From Squalus acanthias (taxonomy: Eukaryota), in NCBI GenBank assembly GCA_030390025.1, contig JASTWF010000034.1, positions 4,960,001 to 5,024,000 of the forward strand: a DNA stretch of 64,000 nt, written 5' to 3'. Each line of letters opens with the position of its first letter. The first letter of the stretch is position 1. The notes under the pieces were generated by a model. That model was not told where the DNA came from. It did no database searches and was given only the letters and a program-made list of their open reading frames with translations. Positions 35,411 through 60,896 of the stretch are shown here, piece after piece. The position numbers and the translations under genes were made by a program.

Positions 35411-38332
35411 AATGTTAGAAGGGTGAGAAACAATAGGGGAAGGCCGAGTAAACAAAGGCAAGAAACACAAAGGGCCATACTAAATCATAAGTCTAAAAGG
35501 ACAAAGGATGTTAATAAAACAAGCCTAAAGGCTCTGTGTCTTAATGCAAGGAGTATCCGTAATAAGGTGGATGAATTGACTGTGCAAATAGATGTTAACG
35601 GATACGATGTGATTGGGATTACAGAGACGTGGCTCCAGAACAATCAAGGCTGGGAACTGAACATCCAGGGGTATTCAACATTCAGAAAGGATAGAATAAA
35701 AGGAAAAGGGGGTGGGGTAGCATTGCTGGTTAAAGAGGAGATTAATGCAATAGCTAGGAAGGACATCAGCTTGGAGGATGTGGAATCAATATGGGTTGAG
35801 CTGCAGAACACCAAAGGGCAGAAAACGTTAGTGGGAGTTGTGTACAGACCTCCAAACAGCAGTAGTGAGGTGGGGGAGGGTATGAAACAGGAAATCAGAG
35901 GTGCGTGCAAAAAAGGCACGGCAGTTATCATGGGTGACTTTAATATGCATATAGATTGGGCTACTCAAACTGGAAGCAATACGGTGGAGGAGGATTTCCT
36001 GGCGTGTTTAAGGGATGGTTTCCTAAACCAATATGTTGAGGAACCAACTCGAGGGGAGGCCATCCTGGACTGGGTGTTGTGTAATGAGGAAGGACTAATC
36101 AGCAATCTTGTGGTACGAGGCCCCCTGGGGAAGAGTGACCATAGTATGGTGGAGTTCTACATTAGGATGGAGAAGGAAACAGTTAAGTCAGAGACCATGG
36201 TCCAGAACTTAAATAAGGGCAACTTTGAGGGTATGAGGCGTGAATTGGCGAGGTTAAATTGGCAAGCGATATTTAAGGGGCTATCAGTGGAAGGGCAATG
36301 GCAGACATTTAGAGATCGCATGGATGAACTACAACAATTGTACATCCCGGTCTGGCGTAAAAATAAAAAAGGGAAGGTGGCTCAACCATGGCTAACAAGG
36401 GAAATCAGGGACAGTATTAAAACCAAGGAAGTTGCATACAAATTGGCCAGAAGTAGCAGCAAACCCGGGGACTGGGAGAACTTCAAAACTCAGCAGAGGA
36501 GGACGAAGGGTTTGATTAGGGCAGGGAAAATAAAATATGAAAGGAAGCTTGCAGAGAACATTAAAATGGACAGCAAAAGCTTCTATAAATATGTAAAAAG
36601 AAAGAGGTTAATAAAAAGAAACGTAGGTCCCCTGCAGTCGGAAACAGGGGAAGTCGTAATGGGGAACAAGGAAATGGCAGATCAATTGAACAAGTACTTT
36701 GGTTCGGTGTTTACTGTGGAGGACACACACAACCTGCCGGAAATAAAAGGGGTCAGAGGATCTGGTAAGAGGGAGGAGCTGAGGGAAATCCTTATTAGTC
36801 GGGAAAAGGTATTGGGAAAATTGATGGGACTGAAGGCTGAAAAATCCCCGGGGCCTGATGGTCTGCATCCCAGAGTACTTAAGGAGGTGGCCTTGGAAAT
36901 AGTGGATGCATTGACGATCATTTTCCAACATTCCTTAGACTCTGGATCAGTTCCGATGGAGTGGAGGGTGGCCAATGTAACCCCTCTTTTTAAAAAAGGA
37001 GGGAGGGAGAAAGCAGGGAATTATAGACCGGTCAGCCTGACATCGGTTGTGGGTAAAATGATGGAAACAATTATTAAAGATGTCATAACAGACCATTTGG
37101 AAAGTGGCGACATGATAGGTCCAAGTCAGCATGGATTTGTGAAAGGGAAATCATGCTTGACAAATCTTCTGGAATTTTTTGAGGATGTTTCCAATAGGGT
37201 GGACAGGGGGGAACCAGTAGATGTGGTGTATTTGGACTTTCAGAAGGCCTTCGACAAGGTTCCACACAAGAGATTGGTGAGCAAAGTTAAAGCACATGGG
37301 ATTGGGGGTAATGTGTTGACGTGGATTGAGAACTGGTTGGCACACAGGAAACAAAGAGTAGGAGTAAATGGGTACTTTTCAGAATGGCAGGCAGTGACCA
37401 GCGGGGTACCGCAGGGTTCGGTGCTGGGACCCCAGCTGTTTACATTATATATTAATGATTTGGACGAAGGGATTAAATGTAATATCTCCAAATTTGCGGA
37501 TGACACTAAATTGGGAGGCAGTGTAAACAATGAGGAGGATGCTAGGAGGCTACAGAGTGACTTGGACAGGTTGGGTGAATGGGCAAATGTATGGCAGATG
37601 AAGTACAATGTGGATAAATGTGAGGTTATCCACTTTGGTGGTAAAAATAGAGAGGCGGACTATTACCTGAATGGTGGCAGATTAGGGAAAGGGGAGGTGC
37701 AACGAGACCTGGGCATCATGGTACATCAGTCACTGAAGGTGGGAATGCAAGTGCAGCAGGCAGTCAAGAAAGCAAACGGAATGATGGCCTTCATAGTAAG
37801 GGGATTTGAGTACAGGAGTAGGGAGGTGATGCTACAGTTGTACAGGGCCTTGGTGAGGCCACACCTGGAGTATTGTGCGCAGTTTTGGTCTCCTAACTTA
37901 AGGAAGGATATTCTTGCTATTGAGGGAGTGCAGCGAAGGTTCACTAGATTGATTCCTGGGATGGCCGGACTGACATATCAAGAAAGATTGGGTCAACTGA
38001 ACTTGTATCCTCTGGAGTTCAGAAGAATGAGGGGGGATCTTATAGAGACATTTAAAATCCTGACTGGTTTAGACAAATTAGATGCGGGCAGAATGTTCCC
38101 AATGGTAGGGAAAACTAGAACCAGGGGTCACAGTCTAAGGATTAAGGGGAAGCCATTTAGGACTGAGCTGAGGAGGAACTTCTTCACCCAGAGAGTGGTG
38201 AATCTATGGAATTCTCTTCCACAGAAGGTTGTTGAGGCCAGTTCGCTAAATATATTCAAAAGGGAGTTAGATATAACACGCACAACTAGGGGGATCAAGG
38301 GGTATGGCGAGAAAGCAGGAATGGGGTACTGA
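35411..38332 (+). CDS. CR1 ORF2 (APE endonuclease + reverse transcriptase), 973 open codons, no AUG at its 5' end
   Basis: APE motifs: LNARS, ITETWL, YRPP, MGDFN, ILDWV, SDH. RT motifs: YRPVSLTSVVGK, QHGF, YLDFQKAFDKV, GVPQGSVLGP, FADD (37493-37504). CR1-type C-terminus (LVRPHLEYCAQFWSP, RGH...FFTQRVVNLWNSLP). The first 59 aa of the 1032-aa track ORF are satellite. Confidence 0.92.
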   Translation, partial: NVRRVRNNRGRPSKQRQETQRAILNHKSKRTKDVNKTSLKALCLNARSIRNKVDELTVQIDVNGYDVIGITETWLQNNQGWELNIQGYSTFRKDRIKGKGGGVALLVKEEINAIARKDISLEDVESIWVELQNTKGQKTLVGVVYRPPNSSSEVGEGMKQEIRGACKKGTAVIMGDFNMHIDWATQTGSNTVEEDFLACLRDGFLNQYVEEPTRGEAILDWVLCNEEGLISNLVVRGPLGKSDHSMVEFYIRMEKETVKSETMVQNLNKGNFEGMRRELARLNWQAIFKGLSVEGQWQTFRDRMDELQQLYIPVWRKNKKGKVAQPWLTREIRDSIKTKEVAYKLARSSSKPGDWENFKTQQRRTKGLIRAGKIKYERKLAENIKMDSKSFYKYVKRKRLIKRNVGPLQSETGEVVMGNKEMADQLNKYFGSVFTVEDTHNLPEIKGVRGSGKREELREILISREKVLGKLMGLKAEKSPGPDGLHPRVLKEVALEIVDALTIIFQHSLDSGSVPMEWRVANVTPLFKKGGREKAGNYRPVSLTSVVGKMMETIIKDVITDHLESGDMIGPSQHGFVKGKSCLTNLLEFFEDVSNRVDRGEPVDVVYLDFQKAFDKVPHKRLVSKVKAHGIGGNVLTWIENWLAHRKQRVGVNGYFSEWQAVTSGVPQGSVLGPQLFTLYINDLDEGIKCNISKFADDTKLGGSVNNEEDARRLQSDLDRLGEWANVWQMKYNVDKCEVIHFGGKNREADYYLNGGRLGKGEVQRDLGIMVHQSLKVGMQVQQAVKKANGMMAFIVRGFEYRSREVMLQLYRALVRPHLEYCAQFWSPNLRKDILAIEGVQRRFTRLIPGMAGLTYQERLGQLNLYPLEFRRMRGDLIETFKILTGLDKLDAGRMFPMVGKTRTRGHSLRIKGKPFRTELRRNFFTQRVVNLWNSLPQKVVEASSLNIFKRELDITRTTRGIKGYGEKAGMGY

Positions 38333-38366
38333 GGTAGCATGTTCAGCCATGAACGCATTGAATGGC

Positions 38367-38432
38367 GGTGCAGGCTCGAAGGACCGAATGGTCTACTCCT
38401 GTACCTATTTTCTATGTTTCTATGTTTCTATG
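38367..38432 (+). other. CR1 3'UTR stem-loop plus (TTTCTATG)3 terminal microsatellite, copy 1
   Basis: GGTGCAGG (38367-38374) pairs with CCTGTACC (38398-38405, one G.U). Inner hairpin GGACC-GAAT-GGTCT. Three 8-mers at 38409-38432. Confidence 0.88.
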
Positions 38433-41400
38433 ACTCGGGTGTTTGACCAGTCACCGGGGTGTGTACGATCATGGACTCGGGCGTTTCATCAGTCCCCAGT
38501 GTGTGTCCGATCATGGACTCGGGTGTTTGACCAGTTCCCGGTGTGTCCGAACATGTACTCGGGTGTTTGACCAGTCCCCGGGGTGTGTACGATCATGGAT
38601 TCGGGCGTTTGACCAGTCCCCGGAGTGTGTCTGATCATGGACTCGGGCGTTTGACCAGTCCCCAGGGTTTGTCGGATCATGGACTCGGGCGTTTGACCAG
38701 TCCCCAGGGTGTGTCCGATCATGGCCTCGGGCGTTTGACCAGTCCCCAGGGTTTGTCGGATCATGGACTCGGGCATTTGACCAGTCCCCGGGGTGTGTCT
38801 GATCATGGACTCAGGCATTTGACCAGTCCCCGGGGTGTGTCTGATAATGGACTCGGGCGTTTGACCAGTCCCCGGAGTGTGTCTGATCATGGACTCGGGC
38901 GTTTGACCAGTCCCCGGAGTGTGTCTGATTATGGACTGGGGCGGTTGACCAGTCCACGGGGTGTGTATGATCATGGATGCGGGGATTTGACCAGTCCCCG
39001 CGGGTGTGTCGGATCATGGACACGATCGTTTGTCCAGTCCCCGGGTCTGTGTCCGATCATAGCCTCCGGCGTTTGACCAGTCCGCGCGGTGTGTCCGATC
39101 ATGGACTCGGGCGTTTGACTAGTCCCCAGGGTTTGTCGGATCATGGACTCGGGCGTTTGACCAGGCCCCAGGGTGTGTCCGATCATGACCTCGGGCGTTT
39201 GACCGGTCCCCAGGGTTTGTCGGATCATGGACTCGGGCGTTTGCCCAGTCCCCGGGTCTGTGTCTGATCATGGACTCAGGCATTTGACCAGTCCCCGGGG
39301 TGTGTCTGATCATGGACTCGGGCGTTTGACCAGTCCCCGGAGTGTGTCTGATTATGGACTTGGGCATTTGTCCAGTCACCGGGATGTGTCCGATCATGGA
39401 CTCGGGCGTTTGACCAGTCCCCGGCGTGTGTCCGATCAGGGACTCGGGCGTTTGACCAGTCCCCGGGGTGTGTCCGATCATGGACTCGAGCGTTTGGACA
39501 TTCCCCGGGGCTGTGTCCGATCATGGACTCGGGCGTTTGACCAGTCCCCGGCGTGTGTCCGATCATGGACGCAGGCGTTTGGCCAGTCCCCGGGTCTGTG
39601 TCCGATCATGGCCTCCGACATTTGACCGGTCCGCGGGGTGTGTCCGATCATGGACTTGAGCGTTTGACCAGTCCCAGGGGTGTGTCTGATCATGGACTCG
39701 GGCGTTTTACCAGTCCCAGGTGTGTGTCTGACCATGGACTCGGGCCTTTGACCAGTTTCCGGGGTGTGTCCGATCATGGACTCGGGCGTTTGACCAGTCA
39801 CCGGGGCTGTCTCCGATCATGGACTCGGGCGTTTGACCAGTCGCAGGTGTGTGTCTGATCATGGACTCGGGCGTTTGATCAGTCCCCTGGTTGTGTCCGA
39901 TCATGGACTCGGGTGTTTGACCTGTCCCCGGAGTGTGTCCAATCATGGACTCGGGCGTTTGACCAGTACCCGGGTTGTGTCTGATCATGGACTCGGGCGT
40001 TTGACCAGTCCCCGGTGTATCCGAACAGGGACTCGGGCGTTTCACCAGTCCCCGGGGTGTGTACGATCATGGACTCGGGTGTTTGACCAGTCCCCGTGGT
40101 GTGTCCGATCATGGACTCGGGCGTTTGACCAGTCCCCGGGGTGTGTCCGATCATGGACTCGGGCGTTTGACCAGTCTTCGGGGTGTGTGCGATCATGGAC
40201 TCGGGCGTTTGACCAGTCTTCGGGCTGTGTACGATCATGGACTCGTGTGTTTGACCAGTCCCCGGGGTGTGTCCGATCATGGACTCGGGCGTTTGACCAG
40301 TCTTCGGGGTGTGTGCGATCATGGACTCGGGCGTTTGACCAGTCCCCGGGGTGTGTGCGATCATGGACTCGGGCGTTTGACCAGTCCCCGAAGTGTGTCT
40401 GATCATGGACTCGGGCATTTGACCAGTCCCCGGTGTGTCCGCACATATACTCGGGTGTTTGACCAGTCCACGGGGTTTTTACGATTATGGACTCGGGCGT
40501 TTGACCAGTCCACGGGGTGTGTCTGATCATGGACTCGGGCATTTGGCCAGTCCCCGGGGTGTGTCCGATCATGGACTCGGCTGTTTAACCAGTCCCTGGG
40601 GTGTGTACGATCATGGACTCGGACGTTTGGCCAGTCCCCGGCGTGTGTCCGATCATGGACTCAGGTGTTTGACCAGTCCCCGGGGTGTGTCCGATCATGG
40701 ACTGGGGCGGTTGACCAGTCCACGGGGTGTGTACGATCATGGATGCGGGGATTTGACCAGTCCCCGCGGGTGTGTCGGATCATGGACACGATCGTTTGTC
40801 CAGTCCCCACGGGTGTGACGGATCATGGACTCGGGCGTTTGACCAGTCCCCGGGGTGTGACGGATCATGCACTCGGGCATTTGGCCAGTCCCCGGGTCTG
40901 TTTCCGATCATGGCCTCCGGCGTTTGACCAGTCCGCGGGATGTGTCCAATCATGGACTCGGGCGGTTGACCAGTCCCCGGGGTGGTGTGTCTGATCATGG
41001 ACTCGTGCGTTTGACCAGTCCCCAGGGTGTGTCCGATCATGGACTTGGGCATTTGACCAGTCCTCGGGGTGTGTCCGATCATGGACTCGGGCGTTTGTCC
41101 AGTCCCCAGGGTTTGTCGGATCATGGTCTCGGGCGTTTGTCCAGTCCCCAGGGTGTGTCCGATCATGGCCTCGGGCGTTTGACCAGTCCCCAGGGTTTGT
41201 CGGATCATGGACTCGGGCGTTTGCCCAGTCCCCGGGGCTGTGTCTGATCATGGACTCAGGCATTTGACCAGTCCCCGGGTTGTTTCTGATCATGGACACG
41301 GGCGTTTGACCAGTCCCCGGTGTGTGTCCAATGATGGACTCGGGCGTTTGACCAGTCCCCGGGGTGTGTCCGATCATGGGCTGGGGCGTTTGACCAGTCT

Positions 41401-44400
41401 TCGGGGTGTGTGCGATCATGGACTCGGGCAGTTGACCAGTCCCCGGGGTGTGTACGATCATGGACTCAGGCTTTTGACCAGTTCCCGGTGTGTCCGAACA
41501 TATACTCGGGTGTTTGACCAGTCCCCGGGGTGTGTACTATCATGGAGTCGGGCGTTTGACCAGTCCCCAGAGTGTGTCTGATCATGGACTCGGGCGTTTG
41601 ACCAGTCCCCAGGGTTTTTCGGATCATGGACTCGGGCGTTTGACCAGTCCCCAGGGTGTGTCCGCTCATGGACTCGGGCGTTTGACCAGTCCCCAGGGTT
41701 TGTCGGATCATGGACTCGGGCAATTGACCAGTCCCCGGGGTGTGTCTGATCATGGACTCAGGCATTTGACCAGTCCCCGGGGTGTGTCTGATCATGGACT
41801 CGGGCGTTTGACCAGTCCCCGGAGTGTGTCTGATTATGGACTGGGGCGGTTGACCAGTCCACGGGGTGTGTATGATCATGGATGCAAGGATTTGACCAGT
41901 CCCCGCGGGTGTGTCGGATCATGGAAACGATCGTTTGGCCAGTCCCCGGGTCTGTGGCCGATCATGGCCTCCAGCGTTTGACCAGTCCGCGGGGTGTGTC
42001 CGATCATGGACTCGGGCGTTTGACCAGTCCCCGGGGCGGTGTGTCTGATCATGGACTCGTGCATTTGACCAGTCCCCAGGTTGTGTCCGATCATGGACTC
42101 GGGCGTTTGACTAGTCCCCAGGGTTTGTCGGATCATGGACTCGGGCGTTTGACCAGGCCCCAGGGTGTGTCCGATCATGGACTCGGGCGTTTGACCAGGC
42201 CCCAGGGTGTGTCCGATCATGGACTCGGGCGTTTGACCAGTCCCCAGGGTTTGTCTGATCATGGACTCGGGCGTTTGCCCAGTCCCCGGGGCTGTGTCTG
42301 ATCATGGAATCAGGCATTTAGCCAGTCCCCGGGGTGTGTCTGATCATGGACTCGGGCGTTTGACCAGTCCCCGGAGTGTGTCTGATTATGGACTTGGGCA
42401 TTTGTCCAGTCACCGGGATGTGTCCGATCATGGACTCGGGCGTTTGACCAGTCCCCGGCGTGTGTCCGATCAGGGACTCGGGCGTTTGACCAGTCCCCGG
42501 GGTGTGTCCGATCATGGACTCGAGCGTTTGGACATTCCCCGGTGCTGTGTCCGATCATGGACTCGGGCGTTTGACCAGTCCGCGGCGTGTGTCCGATCAT
42601 GGACTCAGGCGTTTGGCCAGTCCCCGGGTCTGTGTCGATCATGGCCTCCGGCATTTGACGGTCCGCGGGGTGTGTCCGATCATGGACTTCGGCGTTTGAC
42701 CAGTCCCAGGGGTGTGTCTGATCATGGACTCGGGCGTTTTACCAGTCCCAGGTGTGTGTCTGACCATGACTCGGGCCTTTGACCGTTCCGGGCTGTGTCC
42801 GATCATGGACTCGGGCGTTTTGACCAGTCCCCTGGTTGTGTCCGATCATGGACTCGGGTGTTTGACCAGTCCCCGGGTTGTGTCTGATCATGGACTCGGT
42901 GTTTTGACCAGTCCCCGGTGTATCCGAACATGGACTCGGGCATTTCACCAGTCCCCGGGGTGTGTCCGATCATGGACTCGGGCTGTTTGACCAGTCCCCG
43001 TGGTGTGTCCGTCATGGACTCGGGCGTTTGACCAGTCCCCGGGGTGTGTCCGATCATGGACTCGGGCGTTTTGACCAGTCTTCGGGGTGTGTGCCGATCA
43101 TGGACTCGGGCGTTTGACCAGTCTTCGGGCTGTGTACGATCATGCACTCGGGTGTTTGACCAGTCCCCGGGGTGTGTCCGATCATGGACTCGGGCGTTTG
43201 ACCAGTCTTCGGGGTGTGTGCGATCATGGACTCGGGCGTTTGACCAGTCCCCGGGGTGTGTGCGATCATGGACTCGGGCGGTTGACCAGTCCAATGGGTG
43301 TGTCCGATCATGGACTCGGGCGTTTGACCAGTCCCCGGGGTGTGTACGATCATGGACTCGGGCGTTTGACCAGTCCCCGAAGTGTGTCTGATCATGGACT
43401 CGGGCATTTGACCAGTCCCCGGTGTGTCCGAACATATACTCGGGTGTTTGACCAGTCCACGGGGTTTTTACGATTATGGACTCAGGCGTTTGACCAGTCC
43501 ACGGGGTGTGTCTGATCATGGACTCGGGCATTTGACCAGTCCCCGGGGTGTGTCCGATCATGGACTCGGCTGTTTAACCAGTCCCTGGGGTGTGTACGAT
43601 CATGGACTCGGACGTTTGGCCAGTCCCCGGCGTGTGTCCGATCATGGACTCAGGTGTTTGACCAGTCCCCGGGGTGTGTCCGATCTTGGACTCGTCCATT
43701 GGACCAGTACCCAGGGTGAGTCCGATCATGGACTGGGGCGTTTGACCAGTCCCCGGGTTGTGTCTGATCATGGACTGGGGCGGTTGACCAGTCCACGGGG
43801 TGTGTACGATCATGGATGCGGGGATTTGACCAGTCCCCGCGGGTGTGTCGGATCATGGACATGATCGTTTGTCCAGTCCCCACGGGTGTGACGGATCATG
43901 GACTCGGGCATTTGACCAGTCCCCGGGGTGTGACGGATCATGGACTCGGGCATTTGGCCAGTCCCCGGGTCTGTTTCCGATCATGGCCTCCGGCGTTTGA
44001 CCAGTCCGCGGGATGTGTCCAATCATGGACTCGGGCGGTTGACCAGTCCCCGGGGCGGTGTGTCCTGATCATGGACTCGTGCGTTTGACCAGTCCCCAGG
44101 GTGTGTCCGATCATGGACTTGGGCATTTGACCAGTCCCTCGGGGTGTGTCCGATCATGGACTCGGGCGTTTGACCAGTCCCCAGGGTGTGTCGATCATGG
44201 ACTCGGGCGTTTGACCAGTCCCAGGGGTGTGTCCGATCATGGACTCGGGCGTTTGACCAGTCCCCAGGGGTGTGTCGGATCATGGACTCGGGCGTTTGAC
44301 CAGTCCCCGGGGCTGTGTCTGATCATGGACTCGGCCGTTTGACCAGTCCCCGGGGTGTTTCTGATCATGGACTCGGGCGTTTGACCAGTCCCCGGGTGTG

Positions 44401-47400
44401 TCCGATCATGGACTCGGGCGTTTGACCAGTCCCCGGGTTGTGTCCGATCATGGACTCGGGCGTTTGACCAGTCCCCGGTGTGTGTCCGATCATGGACTCG
44501 GGCGTTTGACCAGTCCCCGGGTGTGTCCGATCATGGACTCGGGCGTTTGACCAGTCCCTGGGGTGTGTCCGATCATGGACTCGGGCGGTTGACCAGTCCC
44601 CGGGGTGTGTACGATCATGGACTCAGGCGTTTGACCAGTTCCCGGTGTGTCCGAACATATACTCGGGTGTTTGACCAGTCCCCGGGGTGTGTACGATCAT
44701 GGAGTCGGGCGTTTGACCAGTCCCCGGAGTGTGTCTGATCATGGACTCGGGCGTTTGACCAGTCCCCAGGGTTTTTCGGATCATGGACTCGGGCGTTTGA
44801 CCAGTCCCCAGGGTGTGTCCGATCATGGACTCGGGCGTTTGACCAGTCCCCAGGGTTTGTCGGATCATGGACTCGGGCATTGGACCAGTCCCCGGGGTGT
44901 GTCTGATCATGGACTCAGGCATTTGACCAGTCCCCGGGGTGTGTCTGATCATGGACTCGGGCGTTTGACCAGTCCCCGGAGTGTGTCTGATCATGGACTC
45001 GGGCGTTTGACCAGTCCCCGGAGTGTGTCTGATTATGGACTGGGGCATTTGACCAGTCCACGGGGTGTGTATGATCATGGATGCGGGGATTTGACCAGTC
45101 CCCGCGGGTGTGTCGGATCATGGACACGATCGTTTGTCCAGACCTCACGGGTGTGACGGATCATGGACTCGGGCGTTTGACCAGTCCGCGGGGTGTGACG
45201 GATCATGGACTCGGGCGTTTGGCCAGTCCCCGGGTCTGTGTCCGATCATGGCCTCCAGCGTTTGACCAGTCCGCGGGGTGTGTCCGATCATGGACTCGGG
45301 CGTTTGACCAGTCCCAGGGGCGGTGTGTCTGATCATGGACTCGTGCATTTGACCAGTCCCCAGGTTGTGTCCGATCATGGACTCGGGCGTTTGACTAGTC
45401 CCCAGGGTTTGTCGGATCATGGACTCGGGCGTTTGACCAGGCCCCAGGGTGTGTCCGATCATGACCTCGGGCGTTTGACCAGTCCCCAGGGTTTGTCGGA
45501 TCATGGACTCGGGCGTTTGCCCAGTCCCCGGGGCTGTGTCTGATCATGGACTCAGGCATTTGACCATTCCCCGGGGTGTGTCTGATCATGGACTCGGGCG
45601 TTTGACCAGTCCCCGGAGTGTGTCTGATTATGGACTTGGGCATTTGTCCAGTCACTGGGATGTGTCCGATCATGGACTTGGGCGTTTGACCAGTCCCCGG
45701 CGTGTGTCCGATCAGGGACTCGGGCGTTTGACCAGTCCCCGGGGTGTGTCCGATCATGGACTCGAGCGTTTGGACATTCCCCTGGGGCTGTGTCCGATCA
45801 TGGACTCGGGCGTTTGACCAGTCCCCGGCGTGTGTCCGATCATGGACTCAGTCGTTTGGCCAGTCCCCGGGTCTGTGTCCGATCATGGCCTCCGGCATTT
45901 GACCGGTCTGCGGGGTGTGTCCGATCATGGACTTGAGCGTTTGACCAGTCCCAGGGGTGTGTCTGATCATGGACTCGGGCATTTTACCAGTCCCAGGTGT
46001 GTGTCTGACCATGGACTCGGGCGTTTGACCAGTTTCCGGGGTGTGTCCGATCATGGACTCGGGCGTTTGACCAGTCACCGGGGCTGTCTCCGATCATGGA
46101 CTCGGGCGTTTGACCAGTCCCAGGTGTGTGTCTGATCATGGACTCGGGCGTTTGATCAGTCCCCTGGTTGTGTCCGATCATGGACTCGGGTGTTTGACCT
46201 GTCCGCGGAGTGTGTCCGATCATGGACTCGGGTGTTTGACCAGTCCCCGGGGTGTGTCCGATCATGGACTCGGGCGTTTGACCAGTCCCCGGCGTGTGTC
46301 CGATCATGGACTCAGTCGTTTGGCCAGTCCCCGGGTCTGTGTCCGATCATGGCCTCCGGCATTTGACCGGTCTGCGGGGTGTGTCCGATCATGGACTTGA
46401 GCGTTTGACCAGTCCCAGGGGTGTGTCTGATCATGGACTCGGGCATTTTACCAGTCCCAGGTGTGTGTCTGACCATGGACTCGGGCGTTTGACCAGTTTC
46501 CGGGGTGTGTCCGATCATGGACTCGGGCGTTTGACCAGTCACCGGGGCTGTCTCCGATCATGGACTCGGGCGTTTGACCAGTCCCAGGTGTGTGTCTGAT
46601 CATGGACTCGGGCGTTTGATCAGTCCCCTGGTTGTGTCCGATCATGGACTCGGGTGTTTGACCTGTCCGCGGAGTGTGTCCGATCATGGACTCGGGTGTT
46701 TGACCAGTCCCCGGGGTGTGTACGATCATGGACTCGGGCGTTTGACCAGTCCCCGAAGTGTGTCTGATCATGGACTCGGGCATTTGACCAGTCCCCGGTG
46801 TGTCCGAACATATACTCGGGTGTTTGACCAGTCCACGGGGTTTTTCCGATTATGGACTCGGGCGTTTGACCAGTCCACGGGGTGTGTCTGATCATGGACT
46901 CGGGCATTTGATCAGTCCCCGGGGTGTGTCCGATCATGAACTCGGCTGTTTAACCAGTCCCTGGGGTGTGTACCATCATGGAATCGGACGTTTGGCCAGT
47001 CCCCGGCGTGTGTCCGATCATGGACTCGTCCGTTTGACCAGTACCCAGGGTGAGTCCGATCATGGACTCGGGCGTTTGACCAGTCCCCGGGGTGTATCCG
47101 ATCATGGACTGGGGCGGTTGACCAGTCCACGGGGTGTGTACGATCATGGATGCGGGGATTTGACCAGTCCCCGCGGGTGTGTCGGATCATGGACATGATC
47201 GTTTGTCCAGTCCCCACGGGTGCGACGGATCATGGACTCGGGCATTTGACCAGTCCCCTGGTTGTGTCCGATCATGGACTCGGGTGTTTGACCTGTCCCC
47301 GGAGTGTGTCCGATCATGGACTCGGGCGGTTGACCAGTCCCCGGGGCTGTGCCTGATCATGAACTCGGGCGTTTGACCAGTCCCCGGGGATGTGTCCGAT

Positions 47401-49807: not shown

Positions 49808-52729
49808 AATGTTAGAAGGGTGAGAAACAATAGGGGAAGGCCGAGTAAACAAAGGCAAGAAACACAAAGGGCCATACTAAATCATAAGTCTAAAAGGACA
49901 AAGGATGTTAATAAAACAAGCCTAAAGGCTCTGTGTCTTAATGCAAGGAGTATCCGTAATAAGGTGGATGAATTGACTGTGCAAATAGATGTTAACGGAT
50001 ACGATGTGATTGGGATTACAGAGACGTGGCTCCAGAACAATCAAGGCTGGGAACTGAACATCCAGGGGTATTCAACATTCAGAAAGGATAGAATAAAAGG
50101 AAAAGGGGGTGGGGTAGCATTGCTGGTTAAAGAGGAGATTAATGCAATAGCTAGGAAGGACATCAGCTTGGAGGATGTGGAATCAATATGGGTTGAGCTG
50201 CAGAACACCAAAGGGCAGAAAACGTTAGTGGGAGTTGTGTACAGACCTCCAAACAGCAGTAGTGAGGTGGGGGAGGGTATGAAACAGGAAATCAGAGGTG
50301 CGTGCAAAAAAGGCACGGCAGTTATCATGGGTGACTTTAATATGCATATAGATTGGGCTACTCAAACTGGAAGCAATACGGTGGAGGAGGATTTCCTGGC
50401 GTGTTTAAGGGATGGTTTCCTAAACCAATATGTTGAGGAACCAACTCGAGGGGAGGCCATCCTGGACTGGGTGTTGTGTAATGAGGAAGGACTAATCAGC
50501 AATCTTGTGGTACGAGGCCCCCTGGGGAAGAGTGACCATAGTATGGTGGAGTTCTACATTAGGATGGAGAAGGAAACAGTTAAGTCAGAGACCATGGTCC
50601 AGAACTTAAATAAGGGCAACTTTGAGGGTATGAGGCGTGAATTGGCGAGGTTAAATTGGCAAGCGATATTTAAGGGGCTATCAGTGGAAGGGCAATGGCA
50701 GACATTTAGAGATCGCATGGATGAACTACAACAATTGTACATCCCGGTCTGGCGTAAAAATAAAAAAGGGAAGGTGGCTCAACCATGGCTAACAAGGGAA
50801 ATCAGGGACAGTATTAAAACCAAGGAAGTTGCATACAAATTGGCCAGAAGTAGCAGCAAACCCGGGGACTGGGAGAACTTCAAAACTCAGCAGAGGAGGA
50901 CGAAGGGTTTGATTAGGGCAGGGAAAATAAAATATGAAAGGAAGCTTGCAGAGAACATTAAAATGGACAGCAAAAGCTTCTATAAATATGTAAAAAGAAA
51001 GAGGTTAATAAAAAGAAACGTAGGTCCCCTGCAGTCGGAAACAGGGGAAGTCGTAATGGGGAACAAGGAAATGGCAGATCAATTGAACAAGTACTTTGGT
51101 TCGGTGTTTACTGTGGAGGACACACACAACCTGCCGGAAATAAAAGGGGTCAGAGGATCTGGTAAGAGGGAGGAGCTGAGGGAAATCCTTATTAGTCGGG
51201 AAAAGGTATTGGGAAAATTGATGGGACTGAAGGCTGAAAAATCCCCGGGGCCTGATGGTCTGCATCCCAGAGTACTTAAGGAGGTGGCCTTGGAAATAGT
51301 GGATGCATTGACGATCATTTTCCAACATTCCTTAGACTCTGGATCAGTTCCGATGGAGTGGAGGGTGGCCAATGTAACCCCTCTTTTTAAAAAAGGAGGG
51401 AGGGAGAAAGCAGGGAATTATAGACCGGTCAGCCTGACATCGGTTGTGGGTAAAATGATGGAAACAATTATTAAAGATGTCATAACAGACCATTTGGAAA
51501 GTGGCGACATGATAGGTCCAAGTCAGCATGGATTTGTGAAAGGGAAATCATGCTTGACAAATCTTCTGGAATTTTTTGAGGATGTTTCCAATAGGGTGGA
51601 CAGGGGGGAACCAGTAGATGTGGTGTATTTGGACTTTCAGAAGGCCTTCGACAAGGTTCCACACAAGAGATTGGTGAGCAAAGTTAAAGCACATGGGATT
51701 GGGGGTAATGTGTTGACGTGGATTGAGAACTGGTTGGCACACAGGAAACAAAGAGTAGGAGTAAATGGGTACTTTTCAGAATGGCAGGCAGTGACCAGCG
51801 GGGTACCGCAGGGTTCGGTGCTGGGACCCCAGCTGTTTACATTATATATTAATGATTTGGACGAAGGGATTAAATGTAATATCTCCAAATTTGCGGATGA
51901 CACTAAATTGGGAGGCAGTGTGAACAATGAGGAGGATGCTAGGAGGCTACAGAGTGACTTGGACAGGTTGGGTGAATGGGCAAATGTATGGCAGATGAAG
52001 TACAATGTGGATAAATGTGAGGTTATCCACTTTGGTGGTAAAAATAGAGAGGCGGACTATTACCTGAATGGTGGCAGATTAGGGAAAGGGGAGGTGCAAC
52101 GAGACCTGGGCATCATGGTACATCAGTCACTGAAGGTGGGAATGCAAGTGCAGCAGGCAGTCAAGAAAGCAAACGGAATGATGGCCTTCATAGTAAGGGG
52201 ATTTGAGTACAGGAGTAGGGAGGTGATGCTACAGTTGTACAGGGCCTTGGTGAGGCCACACCTGGAGTATTGTGCGCAGTTTTGGTCTCCTAACTTAAGG
52301 AAGGATATTCTTGCTATTGAGGGAGTGCAGCGAAGGTTCACTAGATTGATTCCTGGGATGGCCGGACTGACATATCAAGAAAGATTGGGTCAACTGAACT
52401 TGTATCCTCTGGAGTTCAGAAGAATGAGGGGGGATCTTATAGAGACATTTAAAATCCTGACTGGTTTAGACAAATTAGATGCGGGCAGAATGTTCCCAAT
52501 GGTAGGGAAAACTAGAACCAGGGGTCACAGTCTAAGGATTAAGGGGAAGCCATTTAGGACTGAGCTGAGGAGGAACTTCTTCACCCAGAGAGTGGTGAAT
52601 CTATGGAATTCTCTTCCACAGAAGGTTGTTGAGGCCAGTTCGCTAAATATATTCAAAAGGGAGTTAGATATAACACGCACAACTAGGGGGATCAAGGGGT
52701 ATGGCGAGAAAGCAGGAATGGGGTACTGA
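49808..52729 (+). CDS. CR1 ORF2 (APE + RT), copy 2
   Basis: Translation in the ORF track matches copy 1. No stops or frameshifts. Confidence 0.92.
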   Translation, partial: NVRRVRNNRGRPSKQRQETQRAILNHKSKRTKDVNKTSLKALCLNARSIRNKVDELTVQIDVNGYDVIGITETWLQNNQGWELNIQGYSTFRKDRIKGKGGGVALLVKEEINAIARKDISLEDVESIWVELQNTKGQKTLVGVVYRPPNSSSEVGEGMKQEIRGACKKGTAVIMGDFNMHIDWATQTGSNTVEEDFLACLRDGFLNQYVEEPTRGEAILDWVLCNEEGLISNLVVRGPLGKSDHSMVEFYIRMEKETVKSETMVQNLNKGNFEGMRRELARLNWQAIFKGLSVEGQWQTFRDRMDELQQLYIPVWRKNKKGKVAQPWLTREIRDSIKTKEVAYKLARSSSKPGDWENFKTQQRRTKGLIRAGKIKYERKLAENIKMDSKSFYKYVKRKRLIKRNVGPLQSETGEVVMGNKEMADQLNKYFGSVFTVEDTHNLPEIKGVRGSGKREELREILISREKVLGKLMGLKAEKSPGPDGLHPRVLKEVALEIVDALTIIFQHSLDSGSVPMEWRVANVTPLFKKGGREKAGNYRPVSLTSVVGKMMETIIKDVITDHLESGDMIGPSQHGFVKGKSCLTNLLEFFEDVSNRVDRGEPVDVVYLDFQKAFDKVPHKRLVSKVKAHGIGGNVLTWIENWLAHRKQRVGVNGYFSEWQAVTSGVPQGSVLGPQLFTLYINDLDEGIKCNISKFADDTKLGGSVNNEEDARRLQSDLDRLGEWANVWQMKYNVDKCEVIHFGGKNREADYYLNGGRLGKGEVQRDLGIMVHQSLKVGMQVQQAVKKANGMMAFIVRGFEYRSREVMLQLYRALVRPHLEYCAQFWSPNLRKDILAIEGVQRRFTRLIPGMAGLTYQERLGQLNLYPLEFRRMRGDLIETFKILTGLDKLDAGRMFPMVGKTRTRGHSLRIKGKPFRTELRRNFFTQRVVNLWNSLPQKVVEASSLNIFKRELDITRTTRGIKGYGEKAGMGY

Positions 52730-52763
52730 GGTAGCATGTTCAGCCATGAACGCATTGAATGGC

Positions 52764-52829
52764 GGTGCAGGCTCGAAGGACCGAATGGTCTACTCCTGTA
52801 CCTATTTTCTATGTTTCTATGTTTCTATG
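52764..52829 (+). other. CR1 3'UTR stem-loop plus (TTTCTATG)3 tail, copy 2
   Basis: Same sequence as copy 1. Confidence 0.88.
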
Positions 52830-55800
52830 ACTCGGGTGTTTGACCAGTCACCGGGGTGTGTACGATCATGGACTCGGGCGTTTCATCAGTCCCCAGTGTG
52901 TGTCCGATCATGGACTCGGGTGTTTGACCAGTTCCCGGTGTGTCCGAACATGTACTCGGGTGTTTGACCAGTCCCCGGGGTGTGTACGATCATGGATTCG
53001 GGCGTTTGACCAGTCCCCGGAGTGTGTCTGATCATGGACTCGGGCGTTTGACCAGTCCCCAGGGTTTGTCGGATCATGGACTCGGGCGTTTGACCAGTCC
53101 CCAGGGTGTGTCCGATCATGGCCTCGGGCGTTTGACCAGTCCCCAGGGTTTGTCGGATCATGGACTCGGGCATTTGACCAGTCCCCGGGGTGTGTCTGAT
53201 CATGGACTCAGGCATTTGACCAGTCCCCGGGGTGTGTCTGATCATGGACTCGGGCGTTTGACCAGTCCCCGGAGTGTGTCTGATCATGGACTCGGGCGTT
53301 TGACCAGTCCCCGGAGTGTGTCTGATTATGGACTGGGGCGGTTGACCAGTCCACGGGGTGTGTATGATCATGGATGCGGGGATTTGACCAGTCCCCGCGG
53401 GTGTGTCGGATCATGGACACGATCGTTTGTCCAGTCCCCGGGTCTGTGTCCGATCATAGCCTCCGGCGTTTGACCAGTCCGCGCGGTGTGTCCGATCATG
53501 GACTCGGGCGTTTGACTAGTCCCCAGGGTTTGTCGGATCATGGACTCGGGCGTTTGACCAGGCCCCAGGGTGTGTCCGATCATGACCTCGGGCGTTTGAC
53601 CGGTCCCCAGGGTTTGTCGGATCATGGACTCGGGCGTTTGCCCAGTCCCCGGGTCTGTGTCTGATCATGGACTCAGGCATTTGACCAGTCCCCGGGGTGT
53701 GTCTGATCATGGACTCGGGCGTTTGACCAGTCCCCGGAGTGTGTCTGATTATGGACTTGGGCATTTGTCCAGTCACCGGGATGTGTCCGATCATGGACTC
53801 GGGCGTTTGACCAGTCCCCGGCGTGTGTCCGATCAGGGACTCGGGCGTTTGACCAGTCCCCGGGGTGTGTCCGATCATGGACTCGAGCGTTTGGACATTC
53901 CCCGGGGCTGTGTCCGATCATGGACTCGGGCGTTTGACCAGTCCCCGGCGTGTGTCCGATCATGGACGCAGGCGTTTGGCCAGTCCCCGGGTCTATGTCC
54001 GATCATGGCCTCCGACATTTGACCGGTCCGCGGGGTGTGTCCGATCATGGACTTGAGCGTTTGACCAGTCCCAGGGGTGTGTCTGATCATGGACTCGGGC
54101 GTTTTACCAGTCCCAGGTGTGTGTCTGACCATGGACTCGGGCCTTTGACCAGTTTCCGGGGTGTGTCCGATCATGGACTCGGGCGTTTGACCAGTCACCG
54201 GGGCTGTCTCCGATCATGGACTCGGGCGTTTGACCAGTCGCAGGTGTGTGTCTGATCATGGACTCGGGCGTTTGATCAGTCCCCTGGTTGTGTCCGATCA
54301 TGGACTCGGGTGTTTGACCTGTCCCCGGAGTGTGTCCAATCATGGACTCGGGCGTTTGACCAGTACCCGGGTTGTGTCTGATCATGGACTCGGGCGTTTG
54401 ACCAGTCCCCGGTGTATCCGAACAGGGACTCGGGCGTTTCACCAGTCCCCGGGGTGTGTACGATCATGGACTCGGGTGTTTGACCAGTCCCCGTGGTGTG
54501 TCCGATCATGGACTCGGGCGTTTGACCAGTCCCCGGGGTGTGTCCGATCATGGACTCGGGCGTTTGACCAGTCTTCGGGGTGTGTGCGATCATGGACTCG
54601 GGCGTTTGACCAGTCTTCGGGCTGTGTACGATCATGGACTCGTGTGTTTGACCAGTCCCCGGGGTGTGTCCGATCATGGACTCGGGCGTTTGACCAGTCT
54701 TCGGGGTGTGTGCGATCATGGACTCGGGCGTTTGACCAGTCCCCGGGGTGTGTGCGATCATGGACTCGGGCGGTTGACCAGTCCAAGGGGTGTGTCCGAT
54801 CATGGACTCGGGCGTTTGACCAGTTCCCGGGGTGTCCGAACATATACTCGGGTGTTTGACCAGTCCCCGGGGTGTGTACGATCATGGACTCGGGCGTTTG
54901 ACCAGTCCCCGAAGTGTGTCTGATCATGGACTCGGGCATTTGACCAGTCCCCGGTGTGTCCGCACATATACTCGGGTGTTTGACCAGTCCACGGGGTTTT
55001 TACGATTATGGACTCGGGCGTTTGACCAGTCCACGGGGTGTGTCTGATCATGGACTCGGGCATTTGGCCAGTCCCCGGGGTGTGTCCGATCATGGACTCG
55101 GCTGTTTAACCAGTCCCTGGGGTGTGTACGATCATGGACTCGGACGTTTGGCCAGTCCCCGGCGTGTGTCCGATCATGGACTCAGGTGTTTGACCAGTCC
55201 CCGGGGTGTGTCCGATCATGGACTGGGGCGGTTGACCAGTCCACGGGGTGTGTACGATCATGGATGCGGGGATTTGACCAGTCCCCGCGGGTGTGTCGGA
55301 TCATGGACACGATCGTTTGTCCAGTCCCCACGGGTGTGACGGATCATGGACTCGGGCGTTTGACCAGTCCCCGGGGTGTGACGGATCATGCACTCGGGCA
55401 TTTGGCCAGTCCCCGGGTCTGTTTCCGATCATGGCCTCCGGCGTTTGACCAGTCCGCGGGATGTGTCCAATCATGGACTCGGGCGGTTGACCAGTCCCCG
55501 GGGTGGTGTGTCTGATCATGGACTCGTGCGTTTGACCAGTCCCCAGGGTGTGTCCGATCATGGACTTGGGCATTTGACCAGTCCTCGGGGTGTGTCCGAT
55601 CATGGACTCGGGCGTTTGTCCAGTCCCCAGGGTTTGTCGGATCATGGTCTCGGGCGTTTGTCCAGTCCCCAGGGTGTGTCCGATCATGGCCTCGGGCGTT
55701 TGACCAGTCCCCAGGGTTTGTCGGATCATGGACTCGGGCGTTTGCCCAGTCCCCGGGGCTGTGTCTGATCATGGACTCAGGCATTTGACCAGTCCCCGGG

Positions 55801-57874
55801 TTGTTTCTGATCATGGACACGGGCGTTTGACCAGTCCCCGGTGTGTGTCCAATGATGGACTCGGGCGTTTGACCAGTCCCCGGGGTGTGTCCGATCATGG
55901 GCTGGGGCGTTTGACCAGTCTTCGGGGTGTGTGCGATCATGGACTCGGGCAGTTGACCAGTCCCCGGGGTGTGTACGATCATGGACTCAGGCTTTTGACC
56001 AGTTCCCGGTGTGTCCGAACATATACTCGGGTGTTTGACCAGTCCCCGGGGTGTGTACTATCATGGAGTCGGGCGTTTGACCAGTCCCCAGAGTGTGTCT
56101 GATCATGGACTCGGGCGTTTGACCAGTCCCCAGGGTTTTTCGGATCATGGACTCGGGCGTTTGACCAGTCCCCAGGGTGTGTCCGCTCATGGACTCGGGC
56201 GTTTGACCAGTCCCCAGGGTTTGTCGGATCATGGACTCGGGCAATTGACCAGTCCCCGGGGTGTGTCTGATCATGGACTCAGGCATTTGACCAGTCCCCG
56301 GGGTGTGTCTGATCATGGACTCGGGCGTTTGACCAGTCCCCGGAGTGTGTCTGATTATGGACTGGGGCGGTTGACCAGTCCACGGGGTGTGTATGATCAT
56401 GGATGCAAGGATTTGACCAGTCCCCGCGGGTGTGTCGGATCATGGAAACGATCGTTTGGCCAGTCCCCGGGTCTGTGGCCGATCATGGCCTCCAGCGTTT
56501 GACCAGTCCGCGGGGTGTGTCCGATCATGGACTCGGGCGTTTGACCAGTCCCCGGGGCGGTGTGTCTGATCATGGACTCGTGTATTTGACCAGTCCCCAG
56601 GTTGTGTCCGATCATGGACTCGGGCGTTTGACTAGTCCCCAGGGTTTGTCGGATCATGGACTCGGGCGTTTGACCAGGCCCCAGGGTGTGTCCGATCATG
56701 GACTCGGGCGTTTGACCAGGCCCCAGGGTGTGTCCGATCATGGACTCGGGCGTTTGACCAGTCCCCAGGGTTTGTCTGATCATGGACTCGGGCGTTTGCC
56801 CAGTCCCCGGGGCTGTGTCTGATCATGGAATCAGGCATTTAGCCAGTCCCCGGGGTGTGTCTGATCATGGACTCGGGCGTTTGACCAGTCCCCGGAGTGT
56901 GTCTGATTATGGACTTGGGCATTTGTCCAGTCACCGGGATGTGTCCGATCATGGACTCGGGCGTTTGACCAGTCCCCGGGGTGTGTCCGATCATGGACTC
57001 GAGCGTTTGGACATTCCCCGGTGCTGTGTCCGATCATGGACTCGGGCGTTTGACCAGTCCGCGGCGTGTGTCCGATCATGGACTCAGGCGTTTGGCCAGT
57101 CCCCGGGTCTGTGTCCGATCATGGCCTCCGGCATTTGACCGGTCCGCGGGGTGTGTCCGATCATGGACTTGAGCGTTTGACCAGTCCCAGGGGTGTGTCT
57201 GATCATGGCCTCGGGCGTTTTACCAGTCCCAGGTGTGTGTCTGACCATGGACTCGGGCCTTTGACCAGTTTCCGGGCTGTGTCCGATCATGGACTCGGGC
57301 GTTTGATCAGTCCCCTGGTTGTGTCCGATCATGGACTCGGGTGTTTGACCAGTCCCCGGGTTGTGTCTGATCATGGACTCGGGTGTTTGACCAGTCCCCG
57401 GTGTATCCGAACATGGACTCGGGCATTTCACCAGTCCCCGGGGTGTGTACGATCATGGACTCGGGTGTTTGACCAGTCCCCGTGGTGTGTCCGTCATGGA
57501 CTCGGGCGTTTGACCAGTCCCCGGGGTGTGTCCGATCATGGACTCGGGCGTTTGACCAGTCTTCGGGGTGTGTGCGATCATGGACTCGGGCGTTTGACCA
57601 GTCTTCGGGCTGTGTACGATCATGGACTCGGGTGTTTGACCAGTCCCCGGGGCTGTGTCTGATCATGGACTCAGGCATTTGACCAGTCCCCGGGGATGTG
57701 TCCGATCATGGACTCGGGCGTTTGACCAGTACCCGGGTTGTGTCTGATCATGGACTCGGGCGTTTGACCAGTCCCCGGTGTATCCGAACATGGACTCGGG
57801 CGTTTCACCAGTCCCCGGGGTGTGTCCGATCATGGACTCGGTTGTTTGACCAGTCCCTGAGGTATGTACGAACA
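52830..57874 (+). repeat. 42-bp satellite array, segment 3
   Basis: Same monomer. The variant order parallels 38433-~43150. Confidence 0.98.
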
Positions 57875-60796
57875 AATGTTAGAAGGGTGAGAAACAATAG
57901 GGGAAGGCCGAGTAAACAAAGGCAAGAAACACAAAGGGCCATACTAAATCATAAGTCTAAAAGGACAAAGGATGTTAATAAAACAAGCCTAAAGGCTCTG
58001 TGTCTTAATGCAAGGAGTATCCGTAATAAGGTGGATGAATTGACTGTGCAAATAGATGTTAACGGATACGATGTGATTGGGATTACAGAGACGTGGCTCC
58101 AGAACAATCAAGGCTGGGAACTGAACATCCAGGGGTATTCAACATTCAGAAAGGATAGAATAAAAGGAAAAGGGGGTGGGGTAGCATTGCTGGTTAAAGA
58201 GGAGATTAATGCAATAGCTAGGAAGGACATCAGCTTGGAGGATGTGGAATCAATATGGGTTGAGCTGCAGAACACCAAAGGGCAGAAAACGTTAGTGGGA
58301 GTTGTGTACAGACCTCCAAACAGCAGTAGTGAGGTGGGGGAGGGTATGAAACAGGAAATCAGAGGTGCGTGCAAAAAAGGCACGGCAGTTATCATGGGTG
58401 ACTTTAATATGCATATAGATTGGGCTACTCAAACTGGAAGCAATACGGTGGAGGAGGATTTCCTGGCGTGTTTAAGGGATGGTTTCCTAAACCAATATGT
58501 TGAGGAACCAACTCGAGGGGAGGCCATCCTGGACTGGGTGTTGTGTAATGAGGAAGGACTAATCAGCAATCTTGTGGTACGAGGCCCCCTGGGGAAGAGT
58601 GACCATAGTATGGTGGAGTTCTACATTAGGATGGAGAAGGAAACAGTTAAGTCAGAGACCATGGTCCAGAACTTAAATAAGGGCAACTTTGAGGGTATGA
58701 GGCGTGAATTGGCGAGGTTAAATTGGCAAGCGATATTTAAGGGGCTATCAGTGGAAGGGCAATGGCAGACATTTAGAGATCGCATGGATGAACTACAACA
58801 ATTGTACATCCCGGTCTGGCGTAAAAATAAAAAAGGGAAGGTGGCTCAACCATGGCTAACAAGGGAAATCAGGGACAGTATTAAAACCAAGGAAGTTGCA
58901 TACAAATTGGCCAGAAGTAGCAGCAAACCCGGGGACTGGGAGAACTTCAAAACTCAGCAGAGGAGGACGAAGGGTTTGATTAGGGCAGGGAAAATAAAAT
59001 ATGAAAGGAAGCTTGCAGAGAACATTAAAATGGACAGCAAAAGCTTCTATAAATATGTAAAAAGAAAGAGGTTAATAAAAAGAAACGTAGGTCCCCTGCA
59101 GTCGGAAACAGGGGAAGTCGTAATGGGGAACAAGGAAATGGCAGATCAATTGAACAAGTACTTTGGTTCGGTGTTTACTGTGGAGGACACACACAACCTG
59201 CCGGAAATAAAAGGGGTCAGAGGATCTGGTAAGAGGGAGGAGCTGAGGGAAATCCTTATTAGTCGGGAAAAGGTATTGGGAAAATTGATGGGACTGAAGG
59301 CTGAAAAATCCCCGGGGCCTGATGGTCTGCATCCCAGAGTACTTAAGGAGGTGGCCTTGGAAATAGTGGATGCATTGACGATCATTTTCCAACATTCCTT
59401 AGACTCTGGATCAGTTCCGATGGAGTGGAGGGTGGCCAATGTAACCCCTCTTTTTAAAAAAGGAGGGAGGGAGAAAGCAGGGAATTATAGACCGGTCAGC
59501 CTGACATCGGTTGTGGGTAAAATGATGGAAACAATTATTAAAGATGTCATAACAGACCATTTGGAAAGTGGCGACATGATAGGTCCAAGTCAGCATGGAT
59601 TTGTGAAAGGGAAATCATGCTTGACAAATCTTCTGGAATTTTTTGAGGATGTTTCCAATAGGGTGGACAGGGGGGAACCAGTAGATGTGGTGTATTTGGA
59701 CTTTCAGAAGGCCTTCGACAAGGTTCCACACAAGAGATTGGTGAGCAAAGTTAAAGCACATGGGATTGGGGGTAATGTGTTGACGTGGATTGAGAACTGG
59801 TTGGCACACAGGAAACAAAGAGTAGGAGTAAATGGGTACTTTTCAGAATGGCAGGCAGTGACCAGCGGGGTACCGCAGGGTTCGGTGCTGGGACCCCAGC
59901 TGTTTACATTATATATTAATGATTTGGACGAAGGGATTAAATGTAATATCTCCAAATTTGCGGATGACACTAAATTGGGAGGCAGTGTGAACAATGAGGA
60001 GGATGCTAGGAGGCTACAGAGTGACTTGGACAGGTTGGGTGAATGGGCAAATGTATGGCAGATGAAGTACAATGTGGATAAATGTGAGGTTATCCACTTT
60101 GGTGGTAAAAATAGAGAGGCGGACTATTACCTGAATGGTGGCAGATTAGGGAAAGGGGAGGTGCAACGAGACCTGGGCATCATGGTACATCAGTCACTGA
60201 AGGTGGGAATGCAAGTGCAGCAGGCAGTCAAGAAAGCAAACGGAATGATGGCCTTCATAGTAAGGGGATTTGAGTACAGGAGTAGGGAGGTGATGCTACA
60301 GTTGTACAGGGCCTTGGTGAGGCCACACCTGGAGTATTGTGCGCAGTTTTGGTCTCCTAACTTAAGGAAGGATATTCTTGCTATTGAGGGAGTGCAGCGA
60401 AGGTTCACTAGATTGATTCCTGGGATGGCCGGACTGACATATCAAGAAAGATTGGGTCAACTGAACTTGTATCCTCTGGAGTTCAGAAGAATGAGGGGGG
60501 ATCTTATAGAGACATTTAAAATCCTGACTGGTTTAGACAAATTAGATGCGGGCAGAATGTTCCCAATGGTAGGGAAAACTAGAACCAGGGGTCACAGTCT
60601 AAGGATTAAGGGGAAGCCATTTAGGACTGAGCTGAGGAGGAACTTCTTCACCCAGAGAGTGGTGAATCTATGGAATTCTCTTCCACAGAAGGTTGTTGAG
60701 GCCAGTTCGCTAAATATATTCAAAAGGGAGTTAGATATAACACGCACAACTAGGGGGATCAAGGGGTATGGCGAGAAAGCAGGAATGGGGTACTGA
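57875..60796 (+). CDS. CR1 ORF2 (APE + RT), copy 3
   Basis: Translation in the ORF track matches copies 1 and 2. Confidence 0.92.
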   Translation, partial: NVRRVRNNRGRPSKQRQETQRAILNHKSKRTKDVNKTSLKALCLNARSIRNKVDELTVQIDVNGYDVIGITETWLQNNQGWELNIQGYSTFRKDRIKGKGGGVALLVKEEINAIARKDISLEDVESIWVELQNTKGQKTLVGVVYRPPNSSSEVGEGMKQEIRGACKKGTAVIMGDFNMHIDWATQTGSNTVEEDFLACLRDGFLNQYVEEPTRGEAILDWVLCNEEGLISNLVVRGPLGKSDHSMVEFYIRMEKETVKSETMVQNLNKGNFEGMRRELARLNWQAIFKGLSVEGQWQTFRDRMDELQQLYIPVWRKNKKGKVAQPWLTREIRDSIKTKEVAYKLARSSSKPGDWENFKTQQRRTKGLIRAGKIKYERKLAENIKMDSKSFYKYVKRKRLIKRNVGPLQSETGEVVMGNKEMADQLNKYFGSVFTVEDTHNLPEIKGVRGSGKREELREILISREKVLGKLMGLKAEKSPGPDGLHPRVLKEVALEIVDALTIIFQHSLDSGSVPMEWRVANVTPLFKKGGREKAGNYRPVSLTSVVGKMMETIIKDVITDHLESGDMIGPSQHGFVKGKSCLTNLLEFFEDVSNRVDRGEPVDVVYLDFQKAFDKVPHKRLVSKVKAHGIGGNVLTWIENWLAHRKQRVGVNGYFSEWQAVTSGVPQGSVLGPQLFTLYINDLDEGIKCNISKFADDTKLGGSVNNEEDARRLQSDLDRLGEWANVWQMKYNVDKCEVIHFGGKNREADYYLNGGRLGKGEVQRDLGIMVHQSLKVGMQVQQAVKKANGMMAFIVRGFEYRSREVMLQLYRALVRPHLEYCAQFWSPNLRKDILAIEGVQRRFTRLIPGMAGLTYQERLGQLNLYPLEFRRMRGDLIETFKILTGLDKLDAGRMFPMVGKTRTRGHSLRIKGKPFRTELRRNFFTQRVVNLWNSLPQKVVEASSLNIFKRELDITRTTRGIKGYGEKAGMGY

Positions 60797-60830
60797 GGTA
60801 GCATGTTCAGCCATGAACGCATTGAATGGC

Positions 60831-60896
60831 GGTGCAGGCTCGAAGGACCGAATGGTCTACTCCTGTACCTATTTTCTATGTTTCTATGTTTCTATG
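60831..60896 (+). other. CR1 3'UTR stem-loop plus (TTTCTATG)3 tail, copy 3
   Basis: Same sequence as copy 1. Confidence 0.88.

Follow-up and report, generated by a model that had tools for sequence, protein, structure and literature searches.

The window analysed here is a stretch of 64,000 nucleotides in which a 42-bp satellite array is broken by three LINE copies and short diverged patches and by nothing else. The question raised by this locus is whether the LINE was inserted three times, or was inserted once and then copied together with the array around it, and whether all three copies exist outside the assembly. Coordinates are collected in Table 1.

Table 1. Features of the window, with positions counted from its first nucleotide.
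Feature	Position	Strand	Remarks
42-bp satellite array	8..64000	+	1,309 monomers, 657 distinct, one orientation
LINE copy 1, read as CR1-type, 5′-truncated	35411..38432	+	3,022 bp of non-satellite insert
ORF2, copy 1	35411..38332	+	973 open codons and stop; APE-type endonuclease, reverse transcriptase
3′ UTR, copy 1	38333..38432	+	100 nt; predicted stem-loop, then tail units at 38409-38432
LINE copy 2	49808..52829	+	3,022 bp; ORF end 52729
LINE copy 3	57875..60896	+	3,022 bp; ORF end 60796; identical to copy 2
Block B1	30631..43144	+	satellite and LINE 1; paralogous to B2; extra 2,232-bp unit
Error-like single-base indel patch	42636..43094		on B1, mostly homopolymers; low local consensus quality
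Spacer B1/B2	43145..47250	+	continues the 71-80-monomer period of the LINE downstream flank
Block B2	47251..57652	+	satellite and LINE 2; start in register inside a monomer
Junction of 8,067-bp duplication	57640..57695	+	56-bp patch; same sequence at 48897-48952 and at five more positions
Block B3	57678..64000	+	exact copy of 49611-55933 including LINE 3; leaves the window at its end

Monomers differed from the 42-bp consensus by 3.9 edits on average, and the reverse strand had zero 25-mers in common with the array. The higher-order period was ~50-58 monomers at 5-16 kb in the left part; at 26-35 kb it was 52-53 monomers and at 38-47 kb it reached 71-80, and this shift along the array gives it a layered pattern. 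A diverged segment of ~200 bp, found seven times within 1900-20450 (near 1973, 6539, 9105, 11520, 13674, 15853 and 20249) and missing from 21-64 kb, delimits higher-order units of 2.2-2.6 kb in the left part. The monomer has the appearance of an old dimer with halves of 20-22 bp, visible as many short-period rows. Because 42 is a multiple of three, the array contains many spurious ORFs of >200 codons on both strands. In the titles and abstract openings of the shark satellite and centromere literature that was covered, which leaves out most subscription journals, no paper describing this repeat was found.

The original prediction described three 3,022-bp copies with one truncation point, one tail, one position in the monomer and spacings of 14,397 bp (copies 1-2) and 8,067 bp (copies 2-3). 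All of this was confirmed in the sequence, and both junction k-mers occurred in the window exactly three times, at offsets of 14,397 and 8,067. Copies 2 and 3 did not differ from each other, and both differed from copy 1 at a single, synonymous position (37525). At the 3′ end of every copy, three 8-nt tail units were followed by satellite entered at one common monomer position, the tail overlapping the monomer boundary by 1-3 nt with 2-3 nt of the target gone; inspection of the junction sequence revealed no target-site duplication. The hairpin predicted in the 3′ UTR, upstream of the tail, had a z score of −1.97, and 8/200 shuffled sequences were equally stable, which is modest support. The prediction also held that the same monomer variants flank all copies. 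Downstream this was so for six monomers, the next best match in the window being at least 15 edits away; upstream, agreement extended over ~2.5 kb in copies 1 and 2 and over 197 bp only in copy 3 (from 57678). The nearest LINE-free homologue of the target and upstream monomers, at 22902-23195, is an empty site.

For comparison with other sequences, the stretch 35290-38555 was compared with 4 of 21 sequencing runs; three of the four are contig sets of short pieces. One of these, X6, resembles a low-depth run in which the LINE family has been collapsed into long contigs. The raw-read run X21, of which only 41 reads matched, 95% of them continuing unlike the stretch, gives no depth and is probably from another species. 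Contig depths added together do not measure copy number and were not taken as doing so. Several organism codes occurred among the runs; these were not accepted as proof that the element is present in several species.

One X6 family contig matched 35407-35740 with no difference and ran 469 nt further upstream, so the LINE copies are 5′-truncated, in agreement with the proposal that they lack ORF1. Since that match starts at 35407, the four nucleotides at 35407-35410 are a junction microhomology common to satellite and element. Two other readings of the junctions were considered and discarded. The last monomer before the LINE is odd, which would place the 5′ junction farther upstream, but a related LINE-free monomer variant occurs at 23154-23195, and the match to the family contig goes no farther upstream than 35407. 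Joints that skip from 353xx to 385xx, which would represent empty sites, are satellite contigs split over both flanks, with sides of 20-29 letters.

The open frame of the element matches Exo_endo_phos (E 7.4e-14) and then RVT_1 (E 6.6e-34) of Pfam, and the conserved motifs of the endonuclease and the reverse transcriptase align. Homologues at E 1e-50 or better numbered 408, of which 120 were listed; among those listed, the named ones most like the window protein were those of Mobula, at 58% identity, and Chiloscyllium, at 74% over part of the length, and those of turtles and birds were at 43-45%. In a protein tree built from the window protein and 20 chosen from the 120 listed hits, with no outgroup LINE clade and no hit named CR1, the window ORF2 fell in a 7-member clade with the Mobula and Chiloscyllium proteins (support 100/99). 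A protein labelled as Carnobacterium maltaromaticum (P0006, from a 3-kb contig) was 50% identical to ORF2 and was placed among vertebrate LINE proteins in the tree; it is probably host DNA inside a bacterial assembly. The turtle and bird LINE proteins matched here we take to be CR1, and CR1 elements end in an 8-nt tandem tail rather than poly(A). The element is read here as an elasmobranch CR1-type LINE. HER1, the CR1-clade LINE family of sharks and rays, has an APE endonuclease and RT in ORF2, a short 3′ UTR with a stem-loop and an 8-nt tail repeat. The LINE described here resembles HER1 in its APE and RT domains, stem-loop 3′ UTR and 8-nt tail, as compared by described features; it differs from HER1 and CR1 in that this copy has neither 5′ UTR nor ORF1 and has probably also lost the start codon of ORF2. 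In the part of PMC3747384 consulted, HER1/HE1 appears as a table row. CR1 elements are described in an available passage of PMC6007223 (citing Ichiyanagi and Okada 2008) as overlapping their target by a short stretch at the 3′ end, and such an overlap is also present at the junction of this LINE.

The copies had been described as carrying an intact EN/RT ORF. The frame is indeed open and the motifs of both domains are kept, but the first in-frame ATG is codon 158, inside the endonuclease and past its motifs at codons 45 and 70-74. The loose end of 30 letters on the X6 contig described above includes an ATG that lies 11 nt before 35407 and is in the ORF2 frame, with a stop in another frame just before it; from this single contig end we infer that the stop is that of ORF1 and the ATG the start of ORF2. 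The truncation probably removed the start codon, so that 'intact' is true only in part: the frame is open, and translation in the normal way could probably not begin. Each copy begins within the first codons of ORF2, without the 5′ UTR promoter and ORF1, and is thus a truncated and not an autonomous element. Because the monomer length is a multiple of three, a further 64 codons of upstream satellite can be read in the ORF2 frame without a stop at each copy (35219-35410, 49616-49807 and 57683-57874); at copy 1 these codons include no ATG and six in-frame GTG, TTG or CTG codons. Judged by their sequence, the LINE copies in this window are probably unable to make protein.

The history of the three copies was examined at the positions where they differ from the rest of the family. 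Contigs matching the stretch at ≥95% numbered 17,930 and 8,958 in the two deep runs, and the family is young and abundant. From 34 variable sites listed, 12 were kept at which both the collapsed X6 contigs and the majority depth in X1 and X3 show another letter. All but one of these (37525, private to copy 1) were common to all three copies. At 7/11 of the shared sites, ≥93% of the contig depth in each of the two deep runs carried the family major allele; at the remaining four, the source element may have had the letters of a subfamily. The 11 shared substitutions, the common junctions and the near-identical flanks imply that the three copies descend from one insertion; identities of this kind over 3 kb cannot be attained by chance. 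Protein-altering changes made up 7/11 of the shared substitutions, against 79% expected under neutrality, in a test without power, and the changes in ORF2 are compatible with neutral decay.

Three independent insertions of a CR1 aimed at one monomer position would also account for the single position and the single orientation of all copies. Site-specific non-LTR elements leave variable 5′ ends at one target; in the window a single 5′ end was found, and no copy shares the 3′ junction while differing at the 5′ end. Independent insertions would not be expected to share a truncation point, 11 substitutions and kilobases of near-identical flank, the closest LINE-free homologue of the target is unoccupied, and the family, very abundant in the deep runs, has many different loose ends there. 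The probability of site-specific retrotransposition is therefore negligible. Common junctions, flank variants, one strand and private mutations, the marks by which duplication after integration is recognised in sequence, were all found.

The duplications themselves were delimited by aligning the satellite on either side of the LINEs. Over the 8,405 bases aligned between their cores, B1 and B2 showed 5 substitutions (0.06%), and indels of 42, 124 and 2,232 bp, near whole monomers, also separate them. Two derived alleles were found on B1 and four on B2, with one site upstream of the core counted, so B1 and B2 are distinct molecules. After the spacer, of which the window contains no full-length near-identical copy, the array returns in register to the upstream type at ~47251, which fits a tandem duplication of 30.63-47.25 kb. 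B2 and B3 had 0 differences over 6,323 bp. The junction that begins B3 has three parts, the sequence being B1-like to 57652, followed by the 56-bp patch and then by the copy, with the switches in shared stretches of 13 bp and 18 bp. Both duplication breakpoints lie within satellite monomers in register and none in the LINE, and on the left side of each breakpoint identity with the corresponding sequence falls to 82-86%. The order of insertion, 14-kb event and 8-kb event was demonstrated, together with the breakpoints. Multiplication of a single retrotransposition by array recombination, as originally predicted, is thus supported by the private substitutions, the junctions, kilobases of flank and the in-register breakpoints. 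One higher-order unit of 8-14 kb, the other part of that prediction, was not found: the two duplications differ in length and breakpoint and account for three copies within the window, where the units of ~14.4 kb and 8,067 bp are present twice each and so do not form a regular higher-order repeat or macrosatellite.

Amplification of the LINE through the array had also been proposed, and nothing singles the LINE out. The two longest near-identical duplications of the window each include it, and elsewhere in the same array blocks without a LINE have been duplicated: one of 464 bp shows 0 substitutions, one of 2,177 bp differs by 0.28% and one of 2,566 bp by 0.35%, besides an older one at an offset of ~18 kb (3.7%). 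Since LINE-free blocks have been duplicated at similar ages, the LINE is probably a passenger of array turnover.

A different reading is that the LINE block is a genuine expanding macro-repeat, with many regular 8,067-bp units reaching well past 64 kb, and is favoured in recombination, for example because 3 kb of LINE offers long perfect homology for unequal exchange. Unequal crossing-over between existing copies adds repeat units, and exchange would do so here once two copies were present; inclusion of the LINE in the two longest duplications, and the departure of B3 through the end of the window, fit this reading. It is very unlikely, given that the two units are unequal in length, that both breakpoints lie in satellite and that the window-specific LINE alleles have almost no contig depth in two deep runs, the last being a weak test because contigs lose variants. 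Further-reaching still is a version in which the 8,067-bp unit marks the border of a large macro-repeat, now expanding in an undescribed and perhaps centromeric shark satellite, and in which read-through and a non-AUG start yield a near full-length ORF2. Array recombination would then multiply a trans-acting supply of reverse transcriptase; we regard this as highly improbable.

If one or both duplications were assembly artefacts, the genome would hold one or two LINE copies. Such artefacts could have arisen by head-to-tail joining of two haplotypes (B1/B2) or by walking twice around a repeat loop (B2/B3); a somatic variant, or a read derived from an excised satellite circle, may have started them. 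The absence of differences between B2 and B3 over their aligned length is what a loop walked twice would give, and the divergence of B1 from B2 would lie within the possible allelic range. Directly before the end of B1 lies the error-like patch, in which 11 single-base gaps and 5 substitutions separate ~640 bases of the B1 end from B2, mostly in homopolymers, the gaps breaking monomer length on B1. No piece bridging a satellite-LINE junction was present among the 24 contigs and reads listed (27,095 more matched), and short contigs cannot test spacings of 8-14 kb. Neither the contigs of three runs nor the two raw reads covering 37525 had the letter of copy 1 at that site; contigs lose rare variants.

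Several observations point the other way. The junction at B3 is a clean three-part sequence, unique in the window and without indel errors. At the breakpoints, flanks as little alike as those described above are too dissimilar for a misjoin by exact overlap and are unlike allelic flanks. The spacer prolongs the downstream repeat period, as expected of a true tandem duplication, and derived alleles lie on each of B1 and B2. A scan for private edits placed no one-base indels at 46-64 kb, though duplicated sequence conceals such indels by construction; all 109 that it found lie at 1-46 kb, which, with the dense patch at the B1 end, indicates thin local read support and counts on the side of an artefact. 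Patches rich in private one-base indels were seen at 4001-5000, 23001-24000, 30001-31000 and 42636-43094; these are probably consensus errors with thin read support. Taken with the evidence on both sides, an assembly artefact is unlikely, and we consider it probable that a single insertion was followed by two copyings by array turnover in which the LINE was passive.

On this account, the 42-bp array would have received a single insertion of a LINE that is young and belongs to an abundant CR1-type family of elasmobranchs. The junction sequence suggests priming at a monomer boundary, with a tail overlap of 1-3 nt and no target-site duplication. Truncation would have occurred through the 4-nt microhomology, a few codons into ORF2, with loss of ORF1 and probably of the ORF2 start. 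About 11 differences from the family would have been present before the first duplication, which would have been an in-register tandem event with a unit of ~14.4-16.6 kb (30.63-47.25 kb), probably by unequal exchange. The second would have been the 8,067-bp tandem duplication, with the 56-bp templated patch at its junction; it may have arisen by template switching during replication, or by exchange together with a 16-monomer deletion. Throughout, the LINE would have been a passive and probably untranslated passenger.

Comparable cases are known. In a centromeric satellite of Porphyrio hochstetteri, 11 copies of one LINE are ascribed to one integration followed by host recombination in the accessible text of bioRxiv 10.64898/2026.09.17.752431, in the main text of which 'shark' and 'CR1' do not occur. 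As far as that text describes it, the likeness to the present locus is that one LINE occurs repeatedly, with shared flanks, in the satellite array of a vertebrate; Porphyrio is a bird with the satellite bPorHoc1.190, and the array here is from an elasmobranch, has a 42-bp unit and three copies within the window and is only possibly centromeric. In Arabidopsis CEN180, five post-integration duplications of ATHILA elements, 8.9-538 kb apart, are attributed to the mechanism of higher-order-repeat formation in the consulted part of bioRxiv 10.1101/2021.05.30.446350. There too a retrotransposon was copied after integration; ATHILA are plant LTR elements, whereas the element here is a 5′-truncated non-LTR element with breakpoints readable to the base. 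The 41-bp CNM satellite of chicken forms higher-order units of 26-98 monomers according to the available portion of PMC9974502 and resembles the present array, likened by description, in its short monomer and large higher-order units (50-80 monomers here), but no embedded LINE is described in that portion. Rare young L1Hs elements are noted in human higher-order arrays in the available section of 10.1101/2021.07.12.452052; these were dropped as a precedent, as duplication of L1Hs is not described in that section.

Published work thus already shows transposons copied by satellite recombination, namely a LINE in a bird and LTR elements in plants and insects; the present case is an ordinary process and leaves existing knowledge unchanged. 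The predicted feature is real at the level of the assembly and was correctly read as a single insertion that the array copied, and its description as a macro-repeat amplifying an intact gene is overstated. Provided that the assembly is correct, the LINE usefully marks the turnover of this array, in a lineage with little-described satellites: it gives the order of the insertion and of the 14-kb and 8-kb duplications, and it gives breakpoints at base level, of which one carries a templated patch.
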